This document shows, in pieces, positions 5,638 to 62,706 of a stretch of DNA of 64,000 nt (positions are counted from its first letter, which is position 1; each line of letters opens with the position of its first letter). The notes below the pieces were generated by a model that made no database searches, was not told the origin of the DNA, and was given only the letters and a program-made list of their open reading frames with translations. Source of the stretch: a phage; sequence record PX393110.1. One strand, 5' to 3'. Made by a program: the position numbers and the translations under genes.

Positions 5638-5649
5638 TAAGGAACCGCT

Positions 5650-10912: not shown

Positions 10913-10921
10913 GAGGCTTTT

Positions 10922-14690: not shown

Positions 14691-14704
14691 TAGAGAGGTA
14701 GACC

Positions 14705-15181
14705 GTGTTTTTGAATAATGTTCAACAAGTACGGTCTATCGAATGGGGACAAATGCACTTATGGGATGTAAGATTCCCTGATGCTCCGTCCCCATTCTCC
14801 GACTGGTTTCCTGCTACGGATTATCAGTTGAACTCAGTAACTGGGCTAGCTATGTCTCAGCAGTTTTACATGCGAGATTTTAAGTTCCCCCAGAGTAAAG
14901 GATCTCCGGATTTAACTTTCCAGGTATTGGACGATGAGAAGATGACACTCCACGAGTGGTATCATCATTGGTTCGACGAAATATACCAGGAGTCTTCCGG
15001 AGTACTTACTTTAGCTGAGTGCGTTAGACCAGTTATAGTAGCTACCCTAAATCGTCAGAGACAGAGAGTGTTGTTAGAGACATTCTATGTATTCCCAGAC
15101 GGTGCGGTAAATAGAAGTGGCTCGTCCAATTCGGACCAAGTCAACTTCACAATGAACTTCATCATAGCAGGTAAGAACTAA
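14705..15181 (+). CDS. putative tail assembly chaperone
   Basis: 158 aa ORF between tube and tape measure; GTG or internal ATG start. Confidence 0.4.
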   Translation: MFLNNVQQVRSIEWGQMHLWDVRFPDAPSPFSDWFPATDYQLNSVTGLAMSQQFYMRDFKFPQSKGSPDLTFQVLDDEKMTLHEWYHHWFDEIYQESSGVLTLAECVRPVIVATLNRQRQRVLLETFYVFPDGAVNRSGSSNSDQVNFTMNFIIAGKN

Positions 15182-15187
15182 GGATCA

Positions 15188-19653: not shown

Positions 19654-19660
19654 GTGACTT

Positions 19661-20038
19661 ATGTTCAAGATAGACTCAGACAAATTGGCTCAGAGATATG
19701 ATATCTCTAAATTCATGTCTAATGAGAATGGGTCTATCTTGGACTCTGTCGATTCTGAATTTATGTACAAACTGAAGAATCTTTCTCGGTATGGTACATA
19801 TACAGTGATCTCAGAAGTGGGTAGACCCGACCTCCTCTCAGAACGAATCTATGGTGCTGGATTGACTCAGTACTGGTGGATTCTTATGATGGTGAATGAG
19901 TTGCGGTTCCCATGGGACTTAACCATGAACTTAGTTCTGAGATATCCACTGATTGACGATCTGGAAGATATTTACTTCTCGCTAACTCCAGATGTGTCAT
20001 CTGTCTCCGCTACTGCTAAAGTGGAGAGCTTATCATGA
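19661..20038 (+). CDS. LysM-like tail protein (P2 gpX-like)
   Basis: 125 aa; size and position typical of tail protein X; family call is inference. Confidence 0.45.
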   Translation: MFKIDSDKLAQRYDISKFMSNENGSILDSVDSEFMYKLKNLSRYGTYTVISEVGRPDLLSERIYGAGLTQYWWILMMVNELRFPWDLTMNLVLRYPLIDDLEDIYFSLTPDVSSVSATAKVESLS

Positions 20039-21159: not shown

Positions 21160-21161
21160 GT

Positions 21162-21821
21162 ATGATAAATATGATAGACCTCATGCGCAATGGTCAGGAT
21201 CCTCTGAAGGCCATCCATAAGGGAGTAGTCGTTGATAATAACGATCCTGCCCAAAAGTGTAGAGTAAAGGTTAGGGTTCCTGGGGTACTCGATGGCGAGG
21301 GTATCCCATGGGCCATGCCTATTGCATCTGCATTCCTGGGGGATGGGGAATCTGACCGTGTGGAAATACCAGAAGTAGGTACCGAGGTATCTGTATCGTT
21401 CCCCACGGGAGATCAGCATTTCCCATTCTACACTGGGAGATGGCACTCTAAGGAAGTGCCAGAAGAGTTTAAAGAGAATTATCCTAACAGGTACGGATTT
21501 AAGGATTCTACCGGCACTGTATTCTATATAGATAAAGTGTCTAAGGAAGTTCATTTTAAGCACTGTTCTGGATTTCAGTTCGATATTGACCAAGAGGCTA
21601 ATTGGACTCTCACCACTCCAGGAGGAGGTAAGGTCGATATCGCTAAAGCTCTGGAGATAATCGCCAAAGAGCATATCAAACTGGATACTCCTCTTGTCGA
21701 TGGAACAGGAGAGATCAAGGACAAGGTTCGCAAGATGTCGGAAGATCGCGCTATCTACAACGGTCACGATCATGTTGGCGATAGTGGTGGTAGCACATCT
21801 CCGCCTAACTCTAAACAGTAG
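21162..21821 (+). CDS. baseplate central spike protein (gpV/gp5 OB-fold-like)
   Basis: GVVVDNNDP...RVKVRVPG...PEVGTEVSVSF motifs typical of gpV-family spikes. Confidence 0.65.
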   Translation: MINMIDLMRNGQDPLKAIHKGVVVDNNDPAQKCRVKVRVPGVLDGEGIPWAMPIASAFLGDGESDRVEIPEVGTEVSVSFPTGDQHFPFYTGRWHSKEVPEEFKENYPNRYGFKDSTGTVFYIDKVSKEVHFKHCSGFQFDIDQEANWTLTTPGGGKVDIAKALEIIAKEHIKLDTPLVDGTGEIKDKVRKMSEDRAIYNGHDHVGDSGGSTSPPNSKQ

Positions 21822-28951: not shown

Positions 28952-31936
28952 ATGTCTTATAATCCGATCTTAGAAGGATCAACCTGGCCGGAGACTATTC
29001 GTCGCTTAGAAAAGACGGATAGGGCGGAAGGTGGGCCACTAGTTACTAATTCTGAGGATGAACCAGTATCTGGACATATTAATCATCCAATAACTCAGTT
29101 AGCTACCAGAACTTCCATTTTAAAAAAGTATAATTTATCGATAATTAATAACACTAAAGAACAGTGGAAATTATTACTCGGTGACTTAGGACTAACTCTT
29201 GTTGGTACTTTTGAAGAAGGCGCTACTACTAACAGCAAGACTGATGCTGTTTGGCATATTGCTGGTGGTCAGTGTTACGTGTGGGGTGGTTTACTCCCTA
29301 AGACTGTATATGCTAACTCCACACCGCTAACTACTGGTGGTATCTCTGCTGATGCTTGGGTTAGTATTGGTGATGCCGCACTGCGAGGGCAAATATCAGA
29401 CCCGGACGGTGCGACAAAATACCCTGAATTGCAGATTGCTAGATGGCGTGACACTTTTGACCCTCGCGGTTGGGGAGCTAAAGGTGATGGATTAGTTGAT
29501 GATACTGTGGCTCTTAATAATCTGTTAAACGCTGCGCCAGTGGGTCAGAAAATTAATGGTAACGGTAGAACCTATAAAGTATCTGTGCTTCCAGATATTA
29601 GCCGATTCGTCAACACTCGTTTCGTTTATGAGCGTATTCCTGGCCAGACGCTTTATTATGTGTCTGACGAGTTTGTTCAGGGTGAGTTAATTAAAATAAC
29701 CGACACGCCTTATTACAATGCCTGGCCGCAGGATAAAGCGTTCGTTTACGACGATGTTATTTACTGTCCGTTCATGGCTAGCGATCGGCACGGGGTTAGC
29801 AGGCTGCATGTATCCTGGGTTCGCTCAGGTGATGACGGACAGACCTGGACGACCCCGGAGTGGCTAACCGACCTGCACCCTAATTACCCGACAGTTAACT
29901 ATCACTGTATGAGTATGGGTGTGATGCGCAACCGCCTATTTGCGATGATTGAAACCCGTACATTGGCATCTAACGCACTGGTGACTTGCGAGTTATGGGA
30001 TCGGCCCATGTCCCGTAACTACCATCCGACAGGTGGCATCACAAAAGCCGCCAACCAGCCTGTGGCTGTAATTACCATCCCTGAACACGGTCTTTTTGCT
30101 GGGGATTTTGTTAACTTCTCAAACTCTGGGGTGACTGGCGTTTCAGGGAATATGACTGTAACTTCAGTTATTGACCGCAACACGTTTACAGTTACCACGC
30201 CAAATCAACAAGCATTCGACCAAAATAACTCTACCAGCCGCTGGCATATGGGGACATCGTTCCATCAGTCACCATGGCGTAAAACCAGCCTTGGATTGAT
30301 CCCCATGGTTACCGAGGTTCACAGTTTTACCGCCATCAATAACGATTCATTCATGATGGGATATCACCAGGGTGATGTTGCTCCGCGTGAAGTCGGTATG
30401 TTGTATTTTCCGGATGCGTTCAACAATCCTGGGCTTTATCAGAAACGGCATATTCCTGCTGAATATGAGCCAGATGCGGCAGAACCCTGCGTTAAGTATT
30501 TTGACGGTGTTCTTTATGTTGTAACCCGTGGAACCAGGTCTGATCGTCTTGGTAGTTCTCTGCATCGCAGTAGCGACCTGGGGATTACCTGGCAATCACT
30601 GAGGTTTCCGAATAACGTCCACCACTCTACCCTGCCATTCGCTAAGGTAGGAAACGAACTGATTCTTTTCGGCACCGAACGCGCCGACAACGAGTGGGAA
30701 GCAAACGCACCGGATCAACGATATTTCAGTTCTTACCCACGGACGTTCTACACGAGAGTGAACCTCGACACCTGGAACCTGAATAATACTCAGTGGGTAA
30801 ATATCACTGATCAGATTTATCAGGGTGGTATTGTTAACTCTGGCGTCGGTGTCGGATCGGTCGTCGTGAAAGATAGTTATATCTATTACATGTTCGGTGG
30901 GGAAGACCATCTGAACCCATGGACATATGGAGATAACTTAGAGAAAGACCCATTCAAATCAGACGGTCATCCCTCAGATTTGTATTGTTACAAAATGCAG
31001 ATCGGTCCAGACAATCGTGTTTCTCGTGATTTCAGGTACGGTGCTGTACCTGACAGAGCGGTTCCAGTGTTTTTTGATACGAATGGAATTCGCACTGTTC
31101 CTGCGCCTATGGAGTTCACCGGTGATTTAGGGTTAGGTCATGTGACCATTAGAGCCAGCACCAGTAATAACGTTCGCTCTGAAGTTTTAATGGAAGGTGA
31201 GTATGGGTTTATTGGGAAATCTGTACCTACTAATAACCCAGCAGGACAGCGCACCATATTTTGCGGTGGCGAAGGAACCAGTTCTTCTACTGGTGCACAG
31301 ATTACGCTTTATGGTGCTAATAACACAGCTTCTCGCAGGATAGTTTACAACGGAGCTGAGCATCTGTTCCAGACTGCTGACGTTAAGCCTTATAACGATA
31401 ACGCGATTGCGCTCGGTGGGCCTAGCAACCGATTCACTACTGCATACCTCGGAAGCAACCCTATTGTTACTTCTAACGGGGAGAAGAAAACAGAGCCGGT
31501 ATTTTTTGACGATGCTTTTTTAGATGCTTGGGGCGACGTTCATTACATCATGTACCAGTGGTTGGATTCTGTACACTTGAAAGGAAATGACGCTAGAATT
31601 CATTTTGGCGTAATTGCTCAGCAGATCCGCGATGTATTCATTGCTCACGGTCTGATGGATGAGAATAGCACGGATTGCCGCTATGCCGTTCTGTGTTACG
31701 ACAAATATCCTCGCATGACAGACATGGTGTTCTCTCACAATGAAATCGTTGAACACACTGACGAGGAGGGTAATGTAACTACCACGGAAGAACCTGTATA
31801 CACCGAGGTGGTTATTCACGAAGAGGGTGAGGAGTGGGGTGTGCGGCCTGATGGAATTTTCTTTGCTGAGGCAGCATTCCAGAGAAGAAGACTGGAGAGA
31901 ATCGAAGCCAGACTTTCCGATCTTGAAAAGAAATAG
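28952..31936 (+). CDS. sialidase-like tailspike (endosialidase-like) with C-terminal intramolecular chaperone domain
   Basis: 994 aa; two Asp-box motifs (SGDDGQTW, SSDLGITW); GAKGDG motif; C-terminal S74-like chaperone region; distinct codon usage. Confidence 0.7.
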   Translation: MSYNPILEGSTWPETIRRLEKTDRAEGGPLVTNSEDEPVSGHINHPITQLATRTSILKKYNLSIINNTKEQWKLLLGDLGLTLVGTFEEGATTNSKTDAVWHIAGGQCYVWGGLLPKTVYANSTPLTTGGISADAWVSIGDAALRGQISDPDGATKYPELQIARWRDTFDPRGWGAKGDGLVDDTVALNNLLNAAPVGQKINGNGRTYKVSVLPDISRFVNTRFVYERIPGQTLYYVSDEFVQGELIKITDTPYYNAWPQDKAFVYDDVIYCPFMASDRHGVSRLHVSWVRSGDDGQTWTTPEWLTDLHPNYPTVNYHCMSMGVMRNRLFAMIETRTLASNALVTCELWDRPMSRNYHPTGGITKAANQPVAVITIPEHGLFAGDFVNFSNSGVTGVSGNMTVTSVIDRNTFTVTTPNQQAFDQNNSTSRWHMGTSFHQSPWRKTSLGLIPMVTEVHSFTAINNDSFMMGYHQGDVAPREVGMLYFPDAFNNPGLYQKRHIPAEYEPDAAEPCVKYFDGVLYVVTRGTRSDRLGSSLHRSSDLGITWQSLRFPNNVHHSTLPFAKVGNELILFGTERADNEWEANAPDQRYFSSYPRTFYTRVNLDTWNLNNTQWVNITDQIYQGGIVNSGVGVGSVVVKDSYIYYMFGGEDHLNPWTYGDNLEKDPFKSDGHPSDLYCYKMQIGPDNRVSRDFRYGAVPDRAVPVFFDTNGIRTVPAPMEFTGDLGLGHVTIRASTSNNVRSEVLMEGEYGFIGKSVPTNNPAGQRTIFCGGEGTSSSTGAQITLYGANNTASRRIVYNGAEHLFQTADVKPYNDNAIALGGPSNRFTTAYLGSNPIVTSNGEKKTEPVFFDDAFLDAWGDVHYIMYQWLDSVHLKGNDARIHFGVIAQQIRDVFIAHGLMDENSTDCRYAVLCYDKYPRMTDMVFSHNEIVEHTDEEGNVTTTEEPVYTEVVIHEEGEEWGVRPDGIFFAEAAFQRRRLERIEARLSDLEKK

Positions 31937-32056
31937 TAAATAAAGCTTTTTTACCGTAGGTAGGGGGGCTTCAATTTAAGATTTAACTTAAACCAATTAC
32001 CACTCTAAAGTTACTAAGTATTTGTACATCATGTAATATTTTTATGGAGATCACCA

Positions 32057-34678
32057 ATGGGCGGTCGTTCTAGGTTATTTAGCGAACTGGGCGGAGCTCC
32101 TCTTAATACTTATCAGCATGATAATCAGACTCTCGATATTCGCGAGTTAGAGAGTCAGCAGAAAGTATTAGACGAGACTCTTGCCGAAACAATCGGCGAT
32201 GTTAGCGAACTACAGCAGACTGCTGGACAGTCTATGTATATCCTCGGTAACTACGCTGCTGGAATGGTGATCGAGAACGACCGCCAGTACGTCAGACATG
32301 AGAATCTGCTGTACTACTGGACTGGTCCTGTACCGTTTACCACTACTGGTAACTTCTACGAAGAATCCTACTGGACTGGTGGGGTGCAGAGTGGTATCGA
32401 ATGGAGCTACGAAGTACAGGAAGATGGTGAGTTTGAGTTTGAAGTACCATACTCCTTCACCAGCGTACGCCTGTTCGTGGGTGGCGCTCGCCTTACTCGC
32501 GTAGAAGATTACACTATCGATGTGATTAATCGCAAGATCACTCTGACTAAGATTAAACTGTCGAAGGGCGTCCTGGTAACTGCCGAGCTGAATTCTCGTG
32601 ATGCTCTCAGCGTTACCCAGGATCGCATCGATAGCCTTACCAGAGAGATCTCAGAGAAAGTAGGCTTTGTTAACTACAAACTTACTGATCTGTCGGAAGG
32701 TCAGAGCCTTACCCTAACTACCAGAGTTCAGACTGTAAGCTTCTCACTAAATGGGGAGTATTACAAATGGGATGGTGTTCTTCCTAAAGTCGTTAACTAT
32801 GGAGATCCGGAACCAGCTCAATCTGAGCAGGGTACTGGTAAGTGGATTCCTGTAGGTTCTGGCGCCTTGAAATCAGAACTGGGCAAAGTCAGCGACACTA
32901 CTGGAGCGGTTCTTGTAGCTCTACCACAAGGCGGTAACGTGGCGAACGGTATTCGCTATGTAACTCCCGAAATGGCTGGTGCTAAAGGAGATGGTACCAC
33001 TGATGACACCACAGCCGTTCGTAACGTTGTAGCTCTCGCCAAATTAACTGGTCTTAAAATCACCGGTGGAGCGAACTATAAGATCTCGAATGCTTCAATC
33101 GATATCTCTGGTACTGTCATTGAGAACCTACGTCTTAAAGGAAGTGGGTCTAGCTCTATACTGCTAGTTAATGGCAATACTGCCATATCTAATCTAACCC
33201 TAAATAGGGTAGGTATTAGACACACTAACGGTATCTTAAACCTGGACAAATTTGAGATCAATGACTGTAGTGCTACTGCGGCTATTTTAAGCCTTCAGCT
33301 AACATCACCTGGACAAATATTTCTCACCAATGGTGTTATGCGTCGTTGTAATTACGGTTACCTTCGTCAGGGATCTCCAGCTTCTTCCCAGCCGCTGACT
33401 ACTTCATTACTTCGGAATTTACAATTCTTCGATATGAAGGGTGATCCAATCGAGATCAATCTGGCGATAGCTGATACCAACACTACTATCGATCAAATAA
33501 CCATAGATAACGTGGACTCCACAGCTACCGGGAATACTAACTGGGGTATTGCTATAGGCTTAGCTGGGATGGGTAACTACTCACCCACTGCCGCAGACTC
33601 AGAGTACATGTCTGATGTAACCATAAGTAATATTAAGATTACCGGAGCCAAACAGTGTCTGCACTTGGAGAAATGCAGAAACATTAGAATCAGAAATATC
33701 GACATACATCCGGATTCCACTAAGTCAACCGGAGTTGGGTTGGATACTGGTGGTTTCATAGCTTATGGATGTAAAGAGATATACGTGGATGGTGTAACTG
33801 GGTCTCCAACCAACGGAACGGAAGATATGATTCGTTTCGCTTGGGGATCTGTTAACAATGCGTTTACCTTCGCTCATCGAAATGTGCACTTAAGAAACGT
33901 CAATGTAACAGGTACTGTTAAAGTGGAGGTTAGCTGTTCTGATACCCTAGCTTCGACTGTAGAGATGAGAAATATCAATGCAACAACGATATCTCTCCAA
34001 GGCATGGCGTCTGAATACCAGCTGTCAGATTGGTCCGCTGAGAAGATGGTGTTGGATTTCAGATATGTTAGCGGAGATGCTAGAGATAATTACCGTAGAA
34101 ATGCGTGGTCAATTGCTACCATCAGTAATTTGAAATGCCTGAATTCTAACACTGGCGCTCCTGAGGTTACTGTACAGAACATCACTGTGGATACATTGGA
34201 AGTTTCTGGGTGTAACTTCCCTATCCAGAAGACTTTAACTGCTACCCATTGGAGAGGAACTCCTGCATGGCGGCAGAATGGTATTATTTACCACTCTAAG
34301 ACCGGAACTCCTTATGGCATGGCTCTTCTTGCTGGTGACACTATCGTTGCTAGTGACGGAACTATGTTCACGGTGACCTCCCCTGGAGCTCTGTTCTACT
34401 CAAACGAAACTGTTGCGGCCGCTACTGCTGGGTCTAACGCTATTCGTTCTAAAACTAACCTTAACTGGACTGGTCAGTATTATAAGACTGCTGGGTGTAA
34501 GGTTAAAATAGCAGGAGGTGGAGGTGCTGACGGCTCTGATTACATCGGTACTATTGTCCGCAGTGGTTATATTAACAGTGGTAATTACTACTTTGATGTT
34601 TACCCACCACTTCAGTCTAACGTACCTGATGGCGCAGTATTAACTTCCGTAGAAGTACCAGCCTTTAAAACAGTTTAA
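32057..34678 (+). CDS. tailspike protein (pectate-lyase-like beta-helix)
   Basis: 873 aa; GAKGDGTTDDTTAV motif typical of pectate_lyase_3-type tailspikes; internal YKWDGVLPK module. Confidence 0.65.
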   Translation: MGGRSRLFSELGGAPLNTYQHDNQTLDIRELESQQKVLDETLAETIGDVSELQQTAGQSMYILGNYAAGMVIENDRQYVRHENLLYYWTGPVPFTTTGNFYEESYWTGGVQSGIEWSYEVQEDGEFEFEVPYSFTSVRLFVGGARLTRVEDYTIDVINRKITLTKIKLSKGVLVTAELNSRDALSVTQDRIDSLTREISEKVGFVNYKLTDLSEGQSLTLTTRVQTVSFSLNGEYYKWDGVLPKVVNYGDPEPAQSEQGTGKWIPVGSGALKSELGKVSDTTGAVLVALPQGGNVANGIRYVTPEMAGAKGDGTTDDTTAVRNVVALAKLTGLKITGGANYKISNASIDISGTVIENLRLKGSGSSSILLVNGNTAISNLTLNRVGIRHTNGILNLDKFEINDCSATAAILSLQLTSPGQIFLTNGVMRRCNYGYLRQGSPASSQPLTTSLLRNLQFFDMKGDPIEINLAIADTNTTIDQITIDNVDSTATGNTNWGIAIGLAGMGNYSPTAADSEYMSDVTISNIKITGAKQCLHLEKCRNIRIRNIDIHPDSTKSTGVGLDTGGFIAYGCKEIYVDGVTGSPTNGTEDMIRFAWGSVNNAFTFAHRNVHLRNVNVTGTVKVEVSCSDTLASTVEMRNINATTISLQGMASEYQLSDWSAEKMVLDFRYVSGDARDNYRRNAWSIATISNLKCLNSNTGAPEVTVQNITVDTLEVSGCNFPIQKTLTATHWRGTPAWRQNGIIYHSKTGTPYGMALLAGDTIVASDGTMFTVTSPGALFYSNETVAAATAGSNAIRSKTNLNWTGQYYKTAGCKVKIAGGGGADGSDYIGTIVRSGYINSGNYYFDVYPPLQSNVPDGAVLTSVEVPAFKTV

Positions 34679-37003: not shown

Positions 37004-40000
37004 ATGGCAACTTTACCGTCTGATTACTTTAACAGATTCGCGGCTAAGAAGAACTATGCCAAGCATCTGTTTATCGCGGACAGACCGCTCCAGAGCTCGG
37101 AGCTAAATGAAATTCAGGATCAGCAGCTCAATAACGTCTCTACACTGTCCGGCTTCTTGGTCGGTGATGGTGCCATTACTGATGGGGCGGATATTTCCGC
37201 TCTTGGGGACGGTGTGATCTCTATCACTGAGGGTACGTTAATCTATGCCGGTATGGCTATGAACGTACCCGCTGTTACGGATGCATCGTTCCCGACTGCT
37301 GGAGAGGCTGTTTTAGGTGTATCTATCTCTGATAAGGTAATCACCTATCTCGATGATCCTGAGCTTCTCATGCAGTATCAGAACTCTCCGAGCTATGGTT
37401 CAGCTGGTGCTGACCGTCTCCAGAAGGTGACTACTTGGCTGTTAGCCGATGATGTCCCAGAGGGAGATACCTTCTTCCCAGTATTCTACTTCAAGAATGG
37501 CGTACTGGTAAAAACCACTAAGTCTCGTAACGATCTCGACCAGTTCTCTGGTCTTCTGGGTCGCTACGACTCTGATACCCATGGTAACTACGTACTGGAT
37601 GGCCTTACTCTGTCCTATGCAGGTATCGATGGTTCCACCCAGCAGATCATGTTGAACATGGCTGCGGGCAAGGCTCGTGTACTTGGCAACGAAGCACTGT
37701 TCGCCTATGAAAGTACCGTGCGTCTGGACCCTATCAACGATACCGGTAACGTAGCTTCCGAGCCGTATGTGTTTACAGCAGGTACTTATACCTATCAATT
37801 GCGCTACTCTGTAATTGATCAGGTAACTGCTGTTTCTGGTACTAAGCAGGTAACTCGTACGGTAACTCATGGCTCCGCAACGGGTTCGTCTGACTTACTT
37901 CCGGATACTCCTGTTCTGCAGATTATTTCTGTGCAGCAGGGTGGTACTGTCTACGTTAAAGGTAGTGACTATGTACAGAACGGGGACTCTGTAGACTGGT
38001 CACCTACTGGTAACGAACCATCTCCTGGTTCTACTTATCAGGTTACGTACCAGTACATTGACCAGTTCATCCCGACCTGGAACGATACCTCTATCACTAT
38101 TTCCACCAGTGATGCTCTGGTATCTGGGTCTACGTTCTACGTAACCTACTCTTACTTCCTGTCTCGCTATGACCGTGTATCTATCGATGCCTCCGGCGCG
38201 GTGCAGATTACTAAGGGTATTCCAGCAATCCTGGCGAATGCTCAGTTGCCAGGTACTTCCGCTACGTTGCTGTCCATTGCAACTATTCGTCTGACTAAAG
38301 GTCAGGATCCGGTCATCAACAATGATCGTATCGAAGTAGTTACTTATAATGAGCTGAAAGATCTGATGTCTCTGGTAAGCGACATGCAGTACAACATCGC
38401 CCAGCTTTCGCTTCGTGATGAAACTCGCTCTACCGATCCGACTACGACTAAGAAAGGTGTGGTAGTTGACTCTCTGCTTAACGGTAACATGCGTGATGAT
38501 GGTCTTACCAACAACGCCATCGTTGATGAAGGTCAGCTGTTCATCGGAGCATCTTTCTCTCGTCAGTCTAGCCTGGCTCCTGATGGTCTTATGTTATCGT
38601 TTACCGATACCGTAATTCAGTCTCAGGAATTCCGTACCAAGGATACTCGCATCAACCCGTATGCTGGTTCCGGCCAGGTACCTCAGGCGATGATCTCTGT
38701 GTCTCCAGCTAAGATCGATACTCGTGGCTTCTGGTCGTACTTCCATGGTGGATTCCTGCCAGTGGATACTACGATTACGATTAAGCTGTCTGGGTATGCT
38801 GCTAATGAGCAGATTGATCTTACGTTCCGTAACCTCGCAGTGGTTACCTTGGTTGCGGATGACAACGGTACAGCACAGTATGCTCATATGCTATCTGGTG
38901 GCTTGATTAACGGTACGTATCAGTATGTTGCTACCGGTAAGACTACTAAGGCTGTGACTCGCGGTACAGTAACCATCTACAACTCCGGTAGGGTCGACTA
39001 CGGTCAGAACTGGACTGGTGGTGCTGTGCCATGGGGTTACGACCCAGTAGCTCAGACTTTCACTATCCAGGCTACTCGTGATATTAACGCAGTGTCTATC
39101 TACCTAACTGAACTGCCTACTAACACGCTCCAGATTAAACTGGTTCCGACTAAGGTCGGTATTCCGGACTCTACCCAGCTTTACGGCTTCGGTGAAGTTC
39201 CGGCTAATAAATGCGTGCTGGGATGGAACAAGATCAATCTTCGTTATCCAGTAACGGTAACTGGCGGTACTGAGTACTCCATCATCGTCGCTACGGCTAA
39301 CTATCAGGGTAAGGTGGCTACAGCTAAGATTAACGGGTACGATACCGATAAGAAACAGTATGTAGTGAATCAGCCAGCGCAGGGTGTACTGTTAACTTCT
39401 GCGAACGAATCTACCTGGTCTCCGGTTCAGGATGAAGACTTGATGTATCGTCTCCATGCCACTAACTATGGCTCTACCCGTACCGTGAACTTAGGTTCTG
39501 TAACAGTAGCTAGCAATACCAACAGTCTGTCACTGACTGCTGATATTGAGACTCCGGCAAATACCTCCGTGAGATTCTACCTCACTAACGGTACTGATAA
39601 CATTAACCTCAACGTTAACTCTGAAACGTACACTGAGAACTTCTCTGGTACTTTCAGTCTGATGGCAGAGTTTAATACTGGTGATCCTACTGTATCTCCG
39701 AAGGTCTTCGGTGGCGTCATCTTCCGTTCTGGCACTACTGATACTCCTGGGGTATATACCCAGCGTCAGTTCAGTATTCCTAACGGTAACGTTACTCCGG
39801 TAACGCTTAACGTCATCCTGGATCAGTATGTGCCATCTGGTGCCAGCGTAACTGTTCAGTACCAGAATGGTAGTAACTGGGTAGCCTTGACTGGGGGCAC
39901 CGGAACCGCTCTGGGAGATGGGTGGTATACCGTACCTTACAAACTGTCAGGAGTCAATGTGGCTAATACCCGCATCCGTATCATCCTGTCTCTGTCTAAC

Positions 40001-43601: not shown

Positions 43602-44225
43602 TTAGAAACGATCGCGACCTATGATTGGTGCGACTGGTTTAAAGTCAGTCTGGTCGTAACCTTTGTAAAGGTCGTAGCCACCACCAGCAACCTCAGTAAA
43701 GTAAATCTGACCGATGCGCATGTTAGAACGCAGTCGGATAGTGTTAGGGCTTAGGTTAACAATCTCTAGAGTAAATGCTCCCTTGAATCCAAAGTCCCCG
43801 AAACCTGCACTGACATGGCTCAGTATTCCCAGACGACCCATAGTGCTGCGACCGTCGTAATGCTGACAGAATGCCACACCACGGTCTACAGTGCTGTTAC
43901 GGTATCGTGGGTCATAATGCTCGAACCACTTCTCAGGCAACATGGTAGTACAGTCGATACGTTCAGATGCTGAGCCTAAGATGAACTCCCCAGGTTTAAG
44001 ATCGTAGTATAGTGCCTCTACCTCGCGATACTCCGGAAGAGTACATGGTTTATAGGGATCTACTACATGGCCATCAGGCATCTTTTGAGGAACCAGGAAG
44101 AACGGAGCTAAGCGTACATCTACACTATTCTGTCCGATTCGTGGTTCCTGATTGTCCAGATAACTGTGATAGGTCCATAATCCTTGAGTAATTGCCTGCT
44201 CAATATAAGATTTACCAAGGATCAT
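43602..44225 (-). CDS. dCTP deaminase-like protein (dUTPase superfamily)
   Basis: 207 aa; size and motif layout of Dcd family. Confidence 0.55.
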   Translation of the reverse strand: MILGKSYIEQAITQGLWTYHSYLDNQEPRIGQNSVDVRLAPFFLVPQKMPDGHVVDPYKPCTLPEYREVEALYYDLKPGEFILGSASERIDCTTMLPEKWFEHYDPRYRNSTVDRGVAFCQHYDGRSTMGRLGILSHVSAGFGDFGFKGAFTLEIVNLSPNTIRLRSNMRIGQIYFTEVAGGGYDLYKGYDQTDFKPVAPIIGRDRF

Positions 44226-44427
44226 TACGGATGCTCCAGCATGTTCTTAACAGATTCTTCATCTGTAGCTTCTACAGTAGCATTATTATTATTATTATTA
44301 TTATTATTCTTGAATGTGCCCCAGATATCATCAGACACGATCATAGTCTTGGGAGCTAAGTGCTCCGAACGAATAACCGTAATCTGGTTACGATTAAGAT
44401 CCTTAGTTAGTTGCTCAATATCCATCA
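44225..44427 (-). CDS. small protein with poly-Asn tract
   Basis: ATG at 44425-44427 with GAGGA RBS; contains 9 consecutive Asn from (ATT)9. Confidence 0.4.
44282..44308. repeat. (ATT)9 trinucleotide microsatellite
   Basis: 27 nt perfect ATT repeat read directly. Confidence 0.95.
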
Positions 44428-44455
44428 TATTCCTCGGTTCTATGGTAGAATAACA

Positions 44456-44479
44456 TTGACCTCTCCGCAAAGAGGTCAA
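44456..44479 (-). terminator. hairpin downstream of dUTPase gene
   Basis: 9-bp stem TTGACCTCT/AGAGGTCAA; U-tract weak. Confidence 0.35.
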
Positions 44480-44510
44480 TAGTAATTACCGTAGTCTAAC
44501 TACCCCAGGA

Positions 44511-44981
44511 TTACTTAATCCCGGAATGGCCAAACCCACCGTCGCCACGTTCAGAAACATCAGAGAATTTATCCACAAGCTGGAGCTCTGGATGGATAAC
44601 GGGAAGAAACACCATTTGAGCGATACGGTCGCCGTGGTTAATAACGAAAGATTCGTTACTACGGTTCCACACAGACACCATCAGTTCTCCTTGATAGCCG
44701 GAGTCGATAAGACCAACCAAGTTACCCAGTACGATGCCATTTTTATGGCCGAGGCCGCTGCGGGGAAGAATCACAGAAGCGATGTTCGGATCGCCGATGT
44801 TGATCGCTAGACCGGTAGGGACCAGGATAGTTTCGCCAGGATTTACAGCGATTTTATCGATTTCGTCAGTCTTAATCATCGCACGAAGATCAAGACCAGC
44901 ATCACCAGCTTTAGCGTATTTCGGTAACTCCAGAGAGTCGTCCCAGTTAATAGTTTTCTTTACTTGAACTACGGTCATCAT
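44511..44981 (-). CDS. dut: dUTP diphosphatase
   Basis: 156 aa; [39 protein letters not shown] motifs of trimeric dUTPases. Confidence 0.85.
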
Positions 44982-45358
44982 GATGCCCTTTTGTACTGTT
45001 TAATGAATGCTGCGCAGATGCTGGTGAAGAGGTGATCTTTGACTCGATGCTCTTCCGGCAACCGTGAATATGGAACCATACACGGGTGCGTCTTAGCTGC
45101 GAGATCTTTGATTTCTCCATACTTCCAGCCCTGCTCCTTTTTAGTTTTAACCCAGAATTCATGGGACTCTTCTGGGCTGATACGGTTATTGTGTAAGCAG
45201 TTATACGCTCCATCAATAGCCGACTGTTTTATTTCATCGGATGTTGCTTCCCAGCTTAATTGGGTGAAGTCTCCGATAGAATGGCAGTATGCACGATTAG
45301 CTTCGTGACACACCTTAGCCACCATCAATACGATTTCTTCTCGGGTCATATGAGACAT
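44978..45358 (-). CDS. RyR-domain protein
   Basis: [20 protein letters not shown]...[20 protein letters not shown] resembles RyR repeat. Confidence 0.5.
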
Positions 45359-45602: not shown

Positions 45603-45634
45603 TTTAACAGCCTTTGGAGGCTACGAAAGAGCGG
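45603..45634 (-). promoter_or_regulatory. conserved promoter-like motif
   Basis: TTTAACAGCCTTTGGAGGCTACGAAAGAGCGG, about 20 nt upstream of start at 45582. Confidence 0.5.
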
Positions 45635-45944
45635 AATCTTCGTCAGGTAATGAATTAACGAAGTCAGCTATAACTTGAGCATGACATGGTAACGGTAAGC
45701 AGGAGCACCCTAAAGTCTTACCCTTAAGAGTCCGTAAGTAGGAGATGCTTATGTGGCCATCTTTTACTTGCTGGTGGAACCATAGTCTGTATTTCGCGAT
45801 GGCTAATGTTCGGGAACCTACGTTAATAGCGTTAGGTAAATCTTTATGGCTCCACTTATTCCCGAATATAGTACCTCTCCCAACATATAAATCGTAGTTA
45901 GGATTGGTACGTATATTAACCACCCGACAAAGCTTACTCTCCAT
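45621..45944 (-). CDS. DUF4326-like protein
   Basis: YVGRG...GNKW...GKTLGCSCLPLPCHAQV layout recalled from DUF4326. Confidence 0.5.
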   Translation of the reverse strand: MESKLCRVVNIRTNPNYDLYVGRGTIFGNKWSHKDLPNAINVGSRTLAIAKYRLWFHQQVKDGHISISYLRTLKGKTLGCSCLPLPCHAQVIADFVNSLPDEDSALS

Positions 45945-46647
45945 CTTCCACAGAGTTACCCTGCATAGCAATCATGGTATTCACCTCGTGCTCCAGATCC
46001 TGTAACTCTTTTACACGATTGATGGTGCGAACCCAAGTCTTAGCTTCCAGCATCGCATCGAACAATGCATGGTGATCAGACATAGACTCGTGCTGGCTAC
46101 TCAGTTCTTCTTTAATCATGCGACGATCATCGAATGAGATCAGCTGCAGACTAGCCAGAGTGCGGTAATCTCGATTCATCCAGTGTAGGAACGGGGTCTT
46201 ACGTCCTTTAGCCTTAAAGTACCAATCCAGGAATCCCTGGTCGAACTCTGGTGCGTTACCGATGAAGTTCAACATCTGGCAACCAGGATCCTGTAGTACC
46301 TTAGCTACGTACTCTTCGATGATATCCAGAGCTTCGTCAACAGATACTGGATTAGCATATGCAGCATCACGGACGGGTTTCGGGAGAGTGTTGAGCCATT
46401 CAACTACGTTAGGGTCAGACTTCATACCCAGAGCCAGCGACTCTTCTCGATCAATAGTGAAGTAGACGTGGGAGTAGTGATCAGGACCAACCGTCACCAT
46501 ACCTACAGATAGAACTACCCCAGGCTCTTTAAAATCGAGATACTCGGTCTCGATGTCAATTGCGCAGTGGTAGGAGTCGTGATATGACAGGAATCGGTTA
46601 AACAGTTTATTCGGAGCCAGATGGTGTGGCATCATCTTAGTAGACAT
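45934..46647 (-). CDS. 3'-5' exonuclease, DEDDh (DnaQ/RNase T-like)
   Basis: AIDIETE (Exo I), FDQGFL (Exo II), HHALFDA (Exo III) motifs. Confidence 0.7.
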   Translation of the reverse strand: MSTKMMPHHLAPNKLFNRFLSYHDSYHCAIDIETEYLDFKEPGVVLSVGMVTVGPDHYSHVYFTIDREESLALGMKSDPNVVEWLNTLPKPVRDAAYANPVSVDEALDIIEEYVAKVLQDPGCQMLNFIGNAPEFDQGFLDWYFKAKGRKTPFLHWMNRDYRTLASLQLISFDDRRMIKEELSSQHESMSDHHALFDAMLEAKTWVRTINRVKELQDLEHEVNTMIAMQGNSVEDGE

Positions 46648-47351: not shown

Positions 47352-48011
47352 TTAGTCTTCTTCGCCCCACTCATCGTCGTAGGCCTGCTTAGGGGTCTTA
47401 CCTTCATCGTAATCATCCCGCCAGGCTTCCGCATCAGCAGCGCTACCGCCACGAGACTGAGCGTATTGGTGCAGCAGTTTATGCCACTCCGCAAACGATC
47501 CTGTCTCCTTGGTCATTTGTTCCATAACTAACTCCTCCCGAAGTTTCATCAGTAATCGTCCGAGCATATTAATACCAGTGAGGACGGACTTGTACTCCTC
47601 ACGAGTCATACCCCAGAAGGAATCTCCGTGGGTATTTCCTTCGACCAGCTCCTTAGGCCAAGTATCGGTCAATTTTTGAGCTAGCTCCCCACCTTTCGCG
47701 AATTTAATCCGGAGTAGGTGTTCCATCACATCTACTCTCTGTTCCTTCCACGATTCAGTAATGGGCAGCTTACGTCCATATCTCTTGGCCTCACCAGGAG
47801 TATGAAGTCTAGCTATGATAAGACGATGGGCTAGTGATGGAGACTTAGATGCTTGATAGGCATGCTCCACACTAGGGTAAGTAAGGGAGGGAAGAGTCTC
47901 GTTCCCGTAAGGATTCTTATCCTCAATAGGAACAGGATAAAAGTTAGATAGGAATCGGTACTCTCCGATAAACTCCAGAATAGAGTTCTTGTCGGTCCAG
48001 ATCCGCATCAT
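47352..48011 (-). CDS. NADAR (YbiA-like) domain protein, putative ADP-ribosyl N-glycosidase
   Basis: YRFLSNFYP, VEHAYQASK, KRYGRK...WKEQRVDVMEHLLRIKF, LVEGN..D.FWG colinear with E. coli YbiA. Confidence 0.75.
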   Translation of the reverse strand: MMRIWTDKNSILEFIGEYRFLSNFYPVPIEDKNPYGNETLPSLTYPSVEHAYQASKSPSLAHRLIIARLHTPGEAKRYGRKLPITESWKEQRVDVMEHLLRIKFAKGGELAQKLTDTWPKELVEGNTHGDSFWGMTREEYKSVLTGINMLGRLLMKLREELVMEQMTKETGSFAEWHKLLHQYAQSRGGSAADAEAWRDDYDEGKTPKQAYDDEWGEED

Positions 48012-55896: not shown

Positions 55897-56526
55897 TTAT
55901 TTAGGGATCCATGAATACTTTAAATTCCATGGCCTAGGGGTACCATGGAAACAAACTACTGCAACCCCATTAGGCACCGACCCGTTTCCGGTAGACCTGT
56001 GACAGTAATGCTCCTGGTCAGGACCTACTACTGATACCTTGTAGGAACAGAATTTACCTGGGTAGAGATCTTGTATGCGAGGTACTCCATTAAAGAATGG
56101 GCAGATAAACTCCTGATCACCACCTACAGAGTGATTAGCCATGAATCTATCTGGACTAACTATCCAAGCATTCCAGATGCGCTCAGCTAAGATAGGCTCA
56201 ACACGCATCACGCTACTGTTAACCATCCCAGTATGGTACCAGTCTCGGAGAATAGTTGATTCGTCACAGTTCAGCAGGAATGTGATATCGTCGATAATTG
56301 CTGTATCTAAATCGAAGAACACGAATGGCTCCTGGATAGTGAATAGCTCCATCTTACTCCACCAGCCAGGATAATCATGCTTCATAGGTATCCACTCAAC
56401 TCCTTCGATAGGCTCTTTAGAGATACATGCATATCTTGTACCTTCTGGGAGTTGTCTACCTACCCATTTAACGTGATCTTCTGTGAAGTCCTTACCCTTA
56501 CGAAATACCGTAACCACTAGCGACAT
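55897..56526 (-). CDS. putative glycosyltransferase (DxD-containing)
   Basis: 209 aa; FDLDTAIIDD possible DxD motif; in glycosyltransferase cluster. Confidence 0.4.
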   Translation of the reverse strand: MSLVVTVFRKGKDFTEDHVKWVGRQLPEGTRYACISKEPIEGVEWIPMKHDYPGWWSKMELFTIQEPFVFFDLDTAIIDDITFLLNCDESTILRDWYHTGMVNSSVMRVEPILAERIWNAWIVSPDRFMANHSVGGDQEFICPFFNGVPRIQDLYPGKFCSYKVSVVGPDQEHYCHRSTGNGSVPNGVAVVCFHGTPRPWNLKYSWIPK

Positions 56527-57485
56527 TTAGTCTTCTCCATATGTTTAAATCCCTGGATCATGTTCTTAGCCACGTTATCCCAGGTACAATCTTTAACCTT
56601 ATCAGCAATCTTGGTTCTGTTAAGCTTAAGGAGTATTTCGTCCCAGTTTATCTTAGAGCCAACTATGTGATGCTCCACAGATTCCAGACGATCTTTAGGA
56701 ATAAGCCCTTCCTTAGTTACTATCAGAGCTCCGCACCGAGCCGCTTCCAGGACAGTAAGGCCTAACGACTCCTTATGAGTAACTATGAAGATGTCGCAGC
56801 ATCTGATTAATGCAGCGAACTCCTGACTGCTTACTCCTCCACGACGATACTCCTCAACACTTATATTCTCCTCGTCGATAACGCATAATCCATTATCGGT
56901 AAGAGTGTAAGATACGTGAGGAACCGGAATATGCTTAAGGTTCATCATCATGGTTAGGGAGTAATCGAAGTCCGACAGGTCAAATAGCGGATGGTCTACG
57001 AATATCCTAAGTACACCATCCGACATCTTCTCTGGGTAGAATAGCTTATCATCAGCTGCCCACCCTACCTGCCAGTTATTATCCAGATGCCTTTTCAGAC
57101 GACTCGGATTGTCTAAGTACTTATAGGTATCGTCCCGAAGAGTGAAAGTTACGTCTACCTGTTTACAGTCTAGCATCGAACCATCATAGATATGGGTAAC
57201 TAATCCCTTAAAGTGCTTCTTAAGGTATTCTCCTATTTCTAGAGGAATCTGAGTAAACGGACGTACTCCCACATATAAGATATGATCGCACTTCTCTTCC
57301 CGAGCTATTTCTAATACTTGATCAGCATAGACATGAGGATTAACCGAATCGTGGTACTCTGGCCATAATACTAACTCTACTCCATTAGCCTCCAGAGCGC
57401 CTCGGAGATGATATTTCCACATGGTACTGAAGTTAGTTATCTGATGTGAACTACCAGGACAATTTGCTATATACAGTAACTTCAT
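56517..57485 (-). CDS. GT-B fold glycosyltransferase (GT4-like)
   Basis: 322 aa; ESLGLTVLEAARCGALIV matches the E-x7-E motif. Confidence 0.65.
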   Translation of the reverse strand: MKLLYIANCPGSSHQITNFSTMWKYHLRGALEANGVELVLWPEYHDSVNPHVYADQVLEIAREEKCDHILYVGVRPFTQIPLEIGEYLKKHFKGLVTHIYDGSMLDCKQVDVTFTLRDDTYKYLDNPSRLKRHLDNNWQVGWAADDKLFYPEKMSDGVLRIFVDHPLFDLSDFDYSLTMMMNLKHIPVPHVSYTLTDNGLCVIDEENISVEEYRRGGVSSQEFAALIRCCDIFIVTHKESLGLTVLEAARCGALIVTKEGLIPKDRLESVEHHIVGSKINWDEILLKLNRTKIADKVKDCTWDNVAKNMIQGFKHMEKTKCR

Positions 57486-59670: not shown

Positions 59671-59925
59671 TCACTGGTTCAGAACTGCCACGATCTTTTC
59701 TGCCACCTGCTCCAGAGTATCGTCGCTATCATAGTCGAAGTCTGGAATACTGTCTTCCATACCCAGTTCATCTTCAACACGCATGATGATCTCCACTTCA
59801 TCCAGAGAATCTGCACCTAACTGCTCACCGGTAGTAGTTTCAGTTACTTCCAGAATATCAACCATCATGATGTCAGCTACTGCAGATCGCAGTGCATCTT
59901 TAACCTGTTCCAAAGTTACAGACAT
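59671..59925 (-). CDS. acyl carrier protein homolog
   Basis: 84 aa acidic; LGADSLDEVEIIMRVEDELG matches ACP phosphopantetheine-attachment motif; start shares one nt with ligase stop. Confidence 0.75.
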   Translation of the reverse strand: MSVTLEQVKDALRSAVADIMMVDILEVTETTTGEQLGADSLDEVEIIMRVEDELGMEDSIPDFDYDSDDTLEQVAEKIVAVLNQ

Positions 59926-61868
59926 TATTCAGCTCCAATGATTTTACGGAATTGATCTTCGGTAACGATCTTGGTACCCTTAGCTTCGGCAGCCTTAAAC
60001 TTACTGGACTGACTTGGTTTATCGCATACCAGATATTCTGCGTCGCCGATACCGACTTCGACTACGCCATATTTGATCCAGGAGTTAACCAGTTCGCTAC
60101 GAGGCTTACTAAGCTTACCAGTTAAGCAGATCTTGAACTTTCCTTCCGGAAGCGGTTCCTCTACCTTAGAGGCCACCCAGTTCAGAGGAAGATTCAGCAC
60201 CTTCAGGATTACTTCCTGATTCTCTACAATCTTCTTAGCTACGGAACCCATGCATGCATCATAGATTGCCTTACAGATTTTGTAGTCCTCGGTATTGACC
60301 TGGATACCGTCATTAACCATGTCGTGGAAGCTATTGTTACGCAATACACGAATCATCTGGTCGCGAGTCACCGCAGTGGCAATACGCACTCCTGTTGCAT
60401 AACCAAGGCCATCCGTCCAGGTACAGGTCAGCATGTGGTCCATAGAGATAGGACGATCCTTCATATTGAAGAAGGACTGACGAGTAAGCTGGAGAGGGCC
60501 ATCGTACATCTCTACCATACTGAATACTGGATGAGATGGACCAGTCTCGATGATATCGTTCAACATGGCAACATCATCTAGTTTAGCCTGCTCGGCAAAC
60601 TTGTTGATATTCGTCCCACCGAGACCCTTAGGAGCGAAGTCACGGATTATCGTACGAATAACCATCGGGTCTAACTTAGTCTTGATGCGAATATGCACGC
60701 CATCCCAGAAAGTACGTACCCCATCGACGAATTCAGGAATTACCGCAGTGACGGGTTCCACGACTTCTTCGATATGAGGAATTACCTCGTTACGGCGACT
60801 GATCTTGATCTTAGCACCAGGTCCGATACCAGCACTCTTGATGTACTCAGCATTCCATCCGGATGCATAAGTTACATTAACTCCACTCATGTCTACCGTC
60901 TCGAACTCAACAGTAGGCACGACTCGGCCGTAACCACTAACTACCCAGTGTACCTTAACCACGGTAGTGTCATAGAATGCTGATTGGTACTTGATCTTAT
61001 AGTGGACAGTATTCTTGCCCAGCATATTCTCATCCCAGTCAACATTCAGAGATCCCAGAACTACGCCATCCAACAGGTAGTTGCAGACCGGATCTTCGCG
61101 GAACTTAGATGGTGGGTTAGCCACTAGCCAAGTATTGACATAACCAGCAGGAAGAACGAAGTACTTAACTACTTTGAACCCAGCCTTACTTAAACATAGT
61201 AGCAGCTGGTTGTAGTCATCCATCCATGTCTCGTGATCCACATCCTCGTAGAATGCAGTTACCGAATATGCAACCACATCCAGCAGTTCCATTAATGCAG
61301 GATCACTGTATTTAGCCAGAGCAATACCAGAAGCAGCATTACGCTGGTTACTGTACTCGTGGCTGATCCGCTCGAACTTATCATCGGGAATAACGATTTC
61401 GCAGCGGACTTCTTTAATACCTTTAGGAACCTGGCGAGGAAACTCGGCACACTCCAGACTCTTCGTGATGTCCAGACCAGTGACGCCGTCGTGACGAGTT
61501 AAGCCACGGACGAAGTTACCGTCGTAGTCGTAATACAGAACTACCGAGATGCCGTCCAGTTTAGCCGAAGCGACGAATCCCTTAACTTCTTCGTGACCAT
61601 GGAGGAAGTTAAATCCCTCTTCCACAGCACCGATCTTAACCTGGTCAAGACCACCCACGAATGAACCATGTGGGCACTTAGCCAGATGTTCAGCAGCTTC
61701 GGTTACTCCCCAGCCTGGGGTAGTGAGGAGTGGGTTAGTAGGATCCAGCTCAGCTAATTTCTCGGTAAGAGCATCGAACTCTTCGTCCGTAATAATGGGC
61801 TGGTCACCATTATAATATGCATTAGCCGCATTCTTAATTTGCTCTATCAGAGCAGCGACTTTTTCCAT
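59925..61868 (-). CDS. ligA: NAD-dependent DNA ligase
   Basis: 647 aa; KLDG adenylation motif in context colinear with E. coli LigA; C-terminal BRCT-like region. Confidence 0.85.
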   Translation of the reverse strand: MEKVAALIEQIKNAANAYYNGDQPIITDEEFDALTEKLAELDPTNPLLTTPGWGVTEAAEHLAKCPHGSFVGGLDQVKIGAVEEGFNFLHGHEEVKGFVASAKLDGISVVLYYDYDGNFVRGLTRHDGVTGLDITKSLECAEFPRQVPKGIKEVRCEIVIPDDKFERISHEYSNQRNAASGIALAKYSDPALMELLDVVAYSVTAFYEDVDHETWMDDYNQLLLCLSKAGFKVVKYFVLPAGYVNTWLVANPPSKFREDPVCNYLLDGVVLGSLNVDWDENMLGKNTVHYKIKYQSAFYDTTVVKVHWVVSGYGRVVPTVEFETVDMSGVNVTYASGWNAEYIKSAGIGPGAKIKISRRNEVIPHIEEVVEPVTAVIPEFVDGVRTFWDGVHIRIKTKLDPMVIRTIIRDFAPKGLGGTNINKFAEQAKLDDVAMLNDIIETGPSHPVFSMVEMYDGPLQLTRQSFFNMKDRPISMDHMLTCTWTDGLGYATGVRIATAVTRDQMIRVLRNNSFHDMVNDGIQVNTEDYKICKAIYDACMGSVAKKIVENQEVILKVLNLPLNWVASKVEEPLPEGKFKICLTGKLSKPRSELVNSWIKYGVVEVGIGDAEYLVCDKPSQSSKFKAAEAKGTKIVTEDQFRKIIGAE

Positions 61869-61932: not shown

Positions 61933-62706
61933 TTAGCGATTCTCAGGTTCTACGTATTCCAGACCAAGCAGCTGATACAGTTCTTCCTCAGAGGAATTAG
62001 TATCCACACGTTCACCGGTCTCTACATTAAACAGGCCATACTCATTAAGAGTCATGCCCATACGCTTAGCCACCGAACGCATGTGTACGTTATTCTGCAT
62101 TGATCCTGTGGAGTGAAGTAAGCACGCGTTCCAGGATTCTTCTGGACAGATCTTGATATCAAATTCCATACCAGTATTAGTATGGACGAATCGGATCTTT
62201 TTATCCTTACCATACAGTTCCTCCATACCGGTAAGACGGAAAGCATGGCGAACTATTTCTGGAGGGAAGGTAGTAAGCAGGTCTACGTCGCGAATCCACA
62301 TCTTACCACGACGTACCGAACCAGCTGTAGAGATACGACCAGAGCTACCCTCGGCAAGACTCAGTTTGGTCACTTCCGTTAGGTAGGACTCAATGATATC
62401 CTTAACCTCAGTGGAGTAAGCAACACGACCTTCTGGGACTTTAGACATAAGTTCAATGAACTTAGGAGTCATGGTGCCATACTTAGCGAAGGCTTCTAAC
62501 TCGCTAGCAATCCCAGCACCTATCCATGGGATTGTAGTGAAGTTCATCTGGGAAGTTACACCATACGGGTAATCATCCAAGGAACGGGCTGCACGATCAT
62601 ACGCCCTAACATGCCACACGGAATCACCATGGGCTTTCTTAAGCTCGGCTATTTGGCGAAGGTGGCGAACAGCATCAATACGGAAGGTCATCCTAACAGG
62701 CTCCAA
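61933..62706 (-). CDS. DNA polymerase X family (Pol beta-like) nucleotidyltransferase
   Basis: GSVRRGKMWIRDVDLL nucleotidyltransferase motif; C-terminal region colinear with Pol beta thumb. Confidence 0.7.
   Translation of the reverse strand: MEPVRMTFRIDAVRHLRQIAELKKAHGDSVWHVRAYDRAARSLDDYPYGVTSQMNFTTIPWIGAGIASELEAFAKYGTMTPKFIELMSKVPEGRVAYSTEVKDIIESYLTEVTKLSLAEGSSGRISTAGSVRRGKMWIRDVDLLTTFPPEIVRHAFRLTGMEELYGKDKKIRFVHTNTGMEFDIKICPEESWNACLLHSTGSMQNNVHMRSVAKRMGMTLNEYGLFNVETGERVDTNSSEEELYQLLGLEYVEPENR

Follow-up and report, generated by a model that had tools for sequence, protein, structure and literature searches.

Genes for 5-hmdUMP synthesis have recently been listed for Escherichia phage vB_EcoM_IME392 (hereafter IME392; dCTP deaminase AXY86133.1 and thymidylate synthase, TS, AXY86077.1) and likewise for phage EP_H11 (WBU87719.1 and WBU87640.1) in Table 1 of PMC12686479 (Sci Rep 2025), and the same route through dCTP deaminase and a TS homologue is stated for both phages in bioRxiv 10.1101/2025.03.26.645540, where a glycosylase is also proposed to work with PolX and ligase. 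Direct experimental proof of modified thymidine is confined to YerA41, Carin-5 and SP-15, which are more distant (PMC12686479; bioRxiv 10.1101/2025.03.26.645540), and we found no chemical analysis of the DNA of an IME392-type phage in the literature. The TS homologue of ViI-like phages is the dUMP hydroxymethylase of a characterised thymidine-hypermodification pathway (PMC8989533), and dTMP phosphatase activity has been demonstrated for a phage HD enzyme of the YfbR family (PMC12697855). Ralstonia phage RP13 has been grouped with phages of highly modified DNA (PMC12686479). The E. coli host itself runs a two-step route in which dCTP deaminase (Dcd) and dUTPase (Dut) convert dCTP to dUTP and then to dUMP.

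The 64,000-nucleotide stretch of phage DNA analysed here (PX393110.1, hereafter the window) is 95–96% identical to IME392 (MH719082, 116 kb) and 92–95% identical to EP_H11 (OP688485). Since it is colinear with positions 60164–116460 plus 1–11127 of the IME392 record, the window takes in the structural genes along with a part of the early region. We conclude that this IME392-like E. coli myophage probably carries, in one early-gene array, two paralogous enzymes of the dUTPase superfamily that would jointly turn dCTP into dUMP and thereby feed a modified-thymine DNA route encoded outside the window. An earlier note on this DNA had arrived at a similar reading; its interpretation is correct but already published for the two closest relatives, and the gene pair adds no new concept, since both the genes and their place in the pathway are in print. 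The finding assigns the phage to the SP15/RP13-like group, defined only recently, in which thymine is replaced or hypermodified, and membership bears on restriction and CRISPR evasion, on the sequenceability of the DNA and on use in phage therapy. Newly described here is a small phage-specific Dcd clade with a variable insertion and a score below the NCBIfam equivalog cut-off; beyond what is published, the analysis contributes the bifunctional-type signature of the clade, a private microsatellite, a conserved hairpin and a single RyR-Dut fusion.

Layout and kinship of the array

Both ORFs lie at the coordinates given in the earlier note, on the minus strand, flanking a small poly-Asn ORF, and the spacing it had put at 300 bp is a gap of 285 bp (44226–44510) that contains this ORF (Table 1). 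The genes follow the order RyR - Dut - small ORF - Dcd in one tightly coupled array with ATGA and TAATG overlaps, and a further ORF begins 12 nt past the Dcd stop.

Table 1. Features of the array and two further genes of the window, with positions in the window.
Feature	Position	Strand	Remarks
Dcd-like protein, 207 aa	43602..44225	minus	predicted dUTPase-fold dCTP deaminase family, phage-specific clade
Small ORF, 67 aa	44225..44428	minus	ATG at 44428 preceded by GAGGA; TAA stop overlaps Dcd ATG (TAATG); phrog_23599, 1.2e-5
(AAT)9 microsatellite encoding poly-Asn	44282..44308	minus	in-frame
Hairpin	44454..44481	minus	12-bp stem, partly T-rich tail; just downstream of dut stop
Dut, 156 aa	44511..44981	minus	canonical homotrimeric-type dUTPase by profile matches and five motifs
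RyR-domain protein, 126 aa	44978..45358	minus	TGA stop overlaps dut ATG (ATGA)
NAD-dependent ligase	59925..61868
PolX	61933..62706

The same gene order is found in IME392 and EP_H11, with an additional 216-aa ORF inserted directly after Dcd in EP_H11 only. The IME392 orthologues are annotated 'putative dCTP deaminase' (AXY86133.1) and 'putative dUTP diphosphatase' (AXY86134.1), and those of EP_H11 are WBU87719.1 and WBU87717.1; the window Dcd protein is 95.7% and 94.7% identical to its counterparts in IME392 and EP_H11, and the Dut protein is 98.7% identical to that of IME392. In the uncultured relative L018, RyR and dUTPase are fused in frame: a single 294-aa protein runs colinear with both ORFs of the window, at identities of 48% and 50%. 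We looked for further fusions among RyR homologues, and the best 120 of 599 were all stand-alone, so that the L018 fusion is rare and constitutes weak evidence for a functional link between RyR and Dut.

In the mechanical ORF listing the small ORF begins at a TTG (44479) that lies in the hairpin; the most likely start is the ATG given in Table 1. The ORF is conserved in IME392 and EP_H11 only. When it and the ORF downstream of Dcd were compared by phmmer with the Dcd-abutting ORFs of L018, YerA41, Carin-5, L017 and Ab1-TPeters, no match fell below E = 0.009, and both ORFs are therefore lineage-specific. The poly-Asn expansion is private to the genome of the window among the three phages, IME392 reading N-H-N and EP_H11 N-H-N-N at this place, and the run is six codons longer than in IME392 and five longer than in EP_H11, with the frame kept. 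An exact 51-nt tag across the (AAT)9 run had no match in viral_contigs.

A scan for promoters and terminators did not exceed the expectation from shuffled sequence (15 versus 12.6; 4 versus 3.6), and the post-dut hairpin alone stands out from it. Its minimum free energy is -23 kcal/mol (z -2.6), and across the window, IME392 and EP_H11 the stem is constant and the loop variable. The hairpin is possibly a terminator, an attenuator or an RNA processing site.

Identity and active sites of the two enzymes

The designation of the 156-aa protein as a canonical trimeric dUTPase is borne out by scores at the equivalog level, with 181.7 bits to NF001862 dUTP diphosphatase (cut-off 103) and 146 bits to TIGR00576 (cut-off 102.55), in addition to 121.9 bits to Pfam dUTPase PF00692. 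All five dUTPase motifs are in place: AGLDL at residues 28–32, PRSG at 73–76, IDSGY at 92–96, RIAQ at 119–122 and GFGHSG at 149–154, so that neither the Asp of motif III nor the P-loop-like motif V is missing.

Profile searches, which the earlier note had suggested for the 207-aa protein, assign it to the Dcd family through Pfam DCD PF22769 (84.7 bits, cut-off 27) and phrog_1663 'dCTP deaminase' (4.8e-25); the equivalog level of NCBIfam TIGR02274 was not reached (81.5 bits versus a cut-off of 92.8). The TIGR02274 match is broken into two stretches because of a lineage-variable insertion at about residues 93–118, ahead of the GRS motif. A loss of the Dcd catalytic residues, which the note had named as an argument against its reading, was not found: S127, R131 and E154 are invariant across the clade and, together with H137, in 32-sequence alignments that include E. 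coli Dcd, the sequence of which was checked against RefSeq. The invariant columns are G125, R126, S127, R131, H137, E154 and Y187, and the E. coli equivalents G109, R110, S111, R115, H121 and E138 make up the catalytic set.

An AlphaFold2 model of the protein (pLDDT 91.6) is structurally closest in the PDB to M. tuberculosis Dcd:dut, B. halodurans Dcd-dUTPase, E. coli Dcd and M. jannaschii DCD-DUT (TM 0.65–0.85). The best 27 Foldseek matches in the PDB (TMt 0.70–0.85) are all Dcd or Dcd:Dut, with canonical dUTPases ranking far lower. By model and alignment, the 207-aa protein thus has a predicted Dcd fold with the complete residue set of a metal-independent deaminase, and we infer that it would deaminate dCTP. 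The protein might instead be a second nucleotide pyrophosphatase with a Dcd-like fold, either a dUTPase in the archaeal or archaeal-virus style or a dTTPase or dCTPase excluding a canonical base; the orthologue in YerA41 carries the annotation 'trimeric dUTP diphosphatase', archaeal Dcd-like dUTPases occur among the lower-ranked structural matches, and dTTPases are known from phages that replace T (PMC8989533; PMC12697855). Against this stand the Ser/Arg/Glu deaminase triad kept throughout the clade, the uniform make-up of the 27 best structural matches and the canonical Dut already encoded next door, and we consider a pyrophosphatase very improbable.

The clade to which the protein belongs is small and divergent. 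Only 31 hits came from a search across 5.8 billion protein clusters, and 27 of these form the Dcd clade, nearly all from uncultured contigs. Among 50,697 phage records, full-length members were found in six: IME392, EP_H11, Acinetobacter phage Ab1-TPeters, Cobetia phage Carin-5 and Yersinia phages YerA41 and GN1. For at least two of the six, hypermodified thymidine has been demonstrated experimentally. Some clade members lie in N4-like or other contigs beside ThyX-like genes, with no hypermodification genes seen within 10 kb, and the clade is therefore not exclusive to phages with modified DNA.

The nearest match in both sequence and structure is the mycobacterial bifunctional Dcd:dut (PDB 2qlp, 2qxx; 51.6 bits; Foldseek E 2e-12, TM up to 0.85), at an identity of just 25–29%; unlike it, the phage protein carries some 23 additional inserted residues ahead of the GRS motif and differs at the C-terminus. 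The fold and the catalytic Ser111, Arg115 and Glu138 are shared with E. coli Dcd (PDB 1xs1), a weaker match at 30 bits. Fold and sequence scores of this kind do not separate mono- from bifunctional Dcd. In dUTPases, the Asp of motif III and the Gln of motif IV position the hydrolytic water. The window Dcd-like protein aligns with its own Dut at a score of 57, compared with 32.6 ± 6.1 for shuffled sequences, and its D144 and Q173 fall on the motif III Asp (D93) and motif IV Gln (Q122) of Dut; Q173 is invariant across the Dcd clade. At the two signature positions the window protein, with function predicted only, reads AGFGD and RIGQ, in agreement with the bifunctional enzymes of M. tuberculosis (AGFID, KIGQ) and M. 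jannaschii (AGWID, RIGQ) and differing from the monofunctional E. coli Dcd (AHRID, LIGA), the Gln/Ala signature being drawn from these three characterised enzymes only. We lean slightly towards a Dcd-like enzyme that would itself hydrolyse the dUTP it forms to dUMP, in the manner of the bifunctional Dcd:Dut enzymes of mycobacteria and archaea.

A strict relay of the E. coli type, in which the 207-aa protein is monofunctional and releases dUTP, the adjacent Dut is obligatory for dUMP and the downstream use is the same, is a serious contender, although we put it at somewhat under an even chance. It accords with the wording of PMC12686479, with the co-oriented Dcd and trimeric Dut genes that adjoin each other in the window, IME392, EP_H11 and the uncultured L018, and with YerA41, where the clade member is accompanied by a dimeric dUTPase encoded separately. 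The retained motif III Asp and motif IV Gln, and the likeness to two bifunctional enzymes exactly where E. coli Dcd departs from them, speak against the relay. So does Ab1-TPeters, the complete genome of which carries a clade Dcd together with TS-like, kinase and HD genes; tblastn of this genome revealed nothing related to the window trimeric Dut or to the YerA41 dimeric dUTPase, although a host Dut could substitute there. In mycobacteria, a bifunctional Dcd:dut and a Dut coexist, with roles in flux and in sanitising, respectively (PMC5519681), and the coexistence of Dcd and Dut is for this reason uninformative on mono- versus bifunctionality.

The bifunctional reading can be extended into a joint proposal that is more speculative and, taken as a whole, rather unlikely. 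The clade would then consist of bifunctional, dUMP-forming Dcd:Dut enzymes in which the insertion re-tunes feedback, making them for example dTTP-blind or 5-hmdUTP-responsive, so as to provide a committed, host-independent entry to modified-thymine DNA, and Dut with its RyR partner would form a separate dUTP-sanitising module. The argument from the active site is of modest added value, and it yields a simple enzymological hypothesis.

A putative route to modified thymine

The absence of a thymidylate synthase from the window, as reported in the earlier note, agrees with our searches, in which three divergent TS-like tblastn queries and Pfam scans of the larger early-region ORFs were all negative. 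The note had also proposed looking beyond the window for TS or hydroxymethylase homologues, and a ThyA-like gene is indeed present in both close relatives, in a putative modification cluster about 20 kb beyond the window's end. In IME392 this TS-like gene (31858–32931) is outside the window-colinear span, within a contiguous minus-strand block at 31.2–40.7 kb. The block encodes, in order, a YfbR-like HD 5'-deoxynucleotidase, the ThyA-like protein (357 aa), an AAA_28 P-loop kinase, a 5-hmdU DNA kinase (PF18723, 122 bits), two proteins of no assigned function, a PIG-L deacetylase, a BCCT transporter, one more protein of no assigned function and a SAM methyltransferase. In EP_H11 the kinase and the TS-like gene are 95–96% identical to those of IME392.

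Taken together, the ThyA-like gene, the P-loop kinase, the YfbR-type HD nucleotidase and the 5-hmdU DNA kinase appear to mark thymidine hypermodification in IME392 and EP_H11. The 5-hmdU DNA kinase would lack a substrate unless 5-hmdU were present in DNA, which makes the supply of dUMP by Dcd and Dut to a hydroxymethylase the most economical reading. A funnel from dCTP to dUMP, as the note had it, is consistent with the predicted Dcd fold, the catalytic residues and the standard Dut next door, and its further suggestion that thymidylate synthesis or hypermodified pyrimidine pathways draw on the pair gains support from the clusters of IME392 and EP_H11 and from the two 2025 papers, the genes being seen in these relatives only.

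The pair could, more simply, boost ordinary dTTP synthesis, with the TS-like protein a true thymidylate synthase and the phage DNA canonical. The IME392 protein does match the thymidylate synthase families of Pfam (Thymidylat_synt) and PHROG ('thymidylate synthase'), other clade Dcds stand beside ThyX-like genes with no visible modification genes, and IME392 and EP_H11 were deposited as complete genomes, whereas the DNA of YerA41 and Carin-5 resisted standard sequencing. However, the Pfam ThyA match is weak, at 46 bits to PF00303 for a protein of 357 aa, and the nearest homologues after EP_H11 are RP13 and Ab1-TPeters and, beyond these, ViI-like phages (41–42% identity), whose enzyme is of the known dUMP hydroxymethylase type. 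A putative dTMPase of the YfbR type adjoins the TS-like gene, and the 5-hmdU DNA kinase, at 95% identity in EP_H11, requires 5-hmdU in DNA. Canonical DNA fed by ordinary dTTP synthesis therefore seems improbable to us.

In the modified-thymine route that we favour, the Dcd-like enzyme would deaminate dCTP and either release dUTP for Dut or form dUMP itself; were it bifunctional, Dut would mainly sanitise the pool, stopping dUTP from competing with the modified nucleotide of the phage. As relatives and the literature suggest, the dUMP would then receive its hydroxymethyl group from a ThyA-like dUMP hydroxymethylase whose gene lies outside the window, the product would be phosphorylated by the phage P-loop kinase, and a YfbR-type HD nucleotidase would remove dTMP. 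An SP15-like DNA polymerase would incorporate 5-hmdUTP, and 5-hmdU in DNA would be modified further, with the 5-hmdU DNA kinase acting first. With a Dcd of its own, the phage may also supply dUMP independently of the feedback by which dTTP controls the enzyme of the host.

A different role for Dcd would be that of a weapon, depleting dCTP to the detriment of competing phages or of host replication, by analogy with the bacterial dCTP-deaminase defence. Defence through nucleotide depletion by such deaminases is described in bioRxiv 10.1101/2021.04.26.441389; for the present locus, no PADLOC model matched any of the five array proteins, the context is one of nucleotide supply, and Dcd co-occurs with TS-like genes across lineages. 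We give this role hardly any credence.

Comparison with known phage pathways

The proposed route follows the same logic as that of SPO1, phiW-14, ViI and M6-type phages, which combine a supply of dUMP with a dUMP hydroxymethylase, a dNMP kinase, exclusion of T by dTMPase or dTTPase, and a 5-hmdU DNA kinase (PMC8989533). It differs in the source of dUMP: these phages draw it from a phage dCMP deaminase (PMC8989533), and the IME392 lineage would instead use a dUTPase-fold dCTP deaminase together with Dut, no dCMP deaminase being listed for the lineage (PMC12686479).

Phage-encoded deamination of dCTP also reshapes the pyrimidine pool for non-canonical DNA in the dU-DNA phages PBS1, DSS3_VP1 and phiR1-37 (PMC12697855). 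The enzymes of those phages have the metal-dependent CDA/dCMP-deaminase fold, and the phages need dUTP to build up; the canonical Dut in the same operon speaks against dU-DNA in the phage of the window. In contrast to the deaminases of the dU-DNA phages, the Dcd-like enzyme of the window is predicted to have the metal-independent dUTPase fold.

Elements adjoining the dUTPase gene

The dUTPase gene (dut) is translationally coupled, through an ATGA overlap, to the gene for an RyR-domain protein, and in the uncultured relative L018 the two domains occur in a single RyR-dUTPase fusion protein; phage contigs hold very large numbers of free-standing RyR-domain proteins of roughly 120 aa. The hairpin that follows dut keeps an unchanged stem across the window, IME392 and EP_H11, the window's two closest relatives, while its loop differs, and its tail is T-rich in part only. 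This element, within which the mechanical TTG start of the downstream 84-aa ORF falls, may serve in attenuation or mark a site of RNA processing. Within that small ORF, the position of the poly-Asn run encodes N-H-N in IME392 and N-H-N-N in EP_H11, so the run arose by recent slippage that expanded it in frame, and it is no conserved feature.

Features of the window and related genomes
Feature	Source	Position	Strand	Remark
(AAT)9 microsatellite encoding poly-Asn	window	44282-44308	-	private to the window's genome
Hairpin, 12-bp stem, 4-nt loop	window	44454-44481	-	directly 3' of dut stop
RyR-domain protein gene	window	44978-45358	-	ATGA overlap with dut
DUF4326	window	45621-45971	-	same array, just upstream
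Rv2179c-like 3'-5' exoribonuclease	window	45934-46647	-	same array, just upstream
NADAR-domain protein	window	47352-48011	-	same array, just upstream
322-aa ORF	window	56517-57485	-	sub-threshold glycosyltransferase group 1 match
NAD-dependent DNA ligase	window	59925-61868	-	adjoins family X DNA polymerase
Family X DNA polymerase	window	61933-62706	-	adjoins NAD-dependent DNA ligase
RyR-dUTPase fusion, 294 aa	L018	6556-7440
Weakly ThyX-like (Thy1) gene	YerA41 (L006)	19311-20474		partner of Dcd clade member
Weakly ThyX-like (Thy1) gene	Carin-5 (L007)	14416-15642		partner of Dcd clade member
BCCT betaine/carnitine/choline-family transporter	IME392	37577-38959	-	full-length, 311 bits
216-aa ORF	EP_H11	3621-4271		extra, inserted directly after Dcd
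Multisubunit RNA polymerase beta and beta' subunits	IME392	16457-21418		annotation

Partners of the Dcd clade and genes of related phages

The 'thymidylate synthase' partners of the Dcd (dCTP deaminase-like) clade are of two unrelated kinds: ThyA-like in IME392, EP_H11 and Ab1-TPeters, whereas those of YerA41, Carin-5 and two uncultured contigs (L015, L017) are weakly ThyX-like (Thy1). In the N4-like L015, the NrdD gene is in two pieces with the Dcd gene between them. The BCCT transporter of IME392 lies within the presumed thymidine-modification cluster, with a PIG-L deacetylase, a SAM methyltransferase and three proteins without an assigned function on its flanks. Phage DNA-modification clusters do not usually include a transporter; this one could import the modifying moiety. 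The EP_H11 ORF, which is without a Pfam match and is missing from both the window and IME392, may be a mobile insertion. Both IME392 and YerA41, whose genomes measure only 116-146 kb, have proteins annotated as the beta and beta' subunits of a multisubunit RNA polymerase.

Other genes of the window

For the ligase and family X polymerase, the proposed role (bioRxiv 10.1101/2025.03.26.645540) is to finish base-excision repair of dU in partnership with the phage group's replicative polymerase, which is fused to a UDG. The 322-aa ORF scored 24.7 bits, under the cut-off of 26.4, and by this match may bear on glycosylated thymidines of the SP-15 and YerA41 type. As in the window, a NADAR protein is present in YerA41, and L018 carries the Rv2179c-like gene in synteny.
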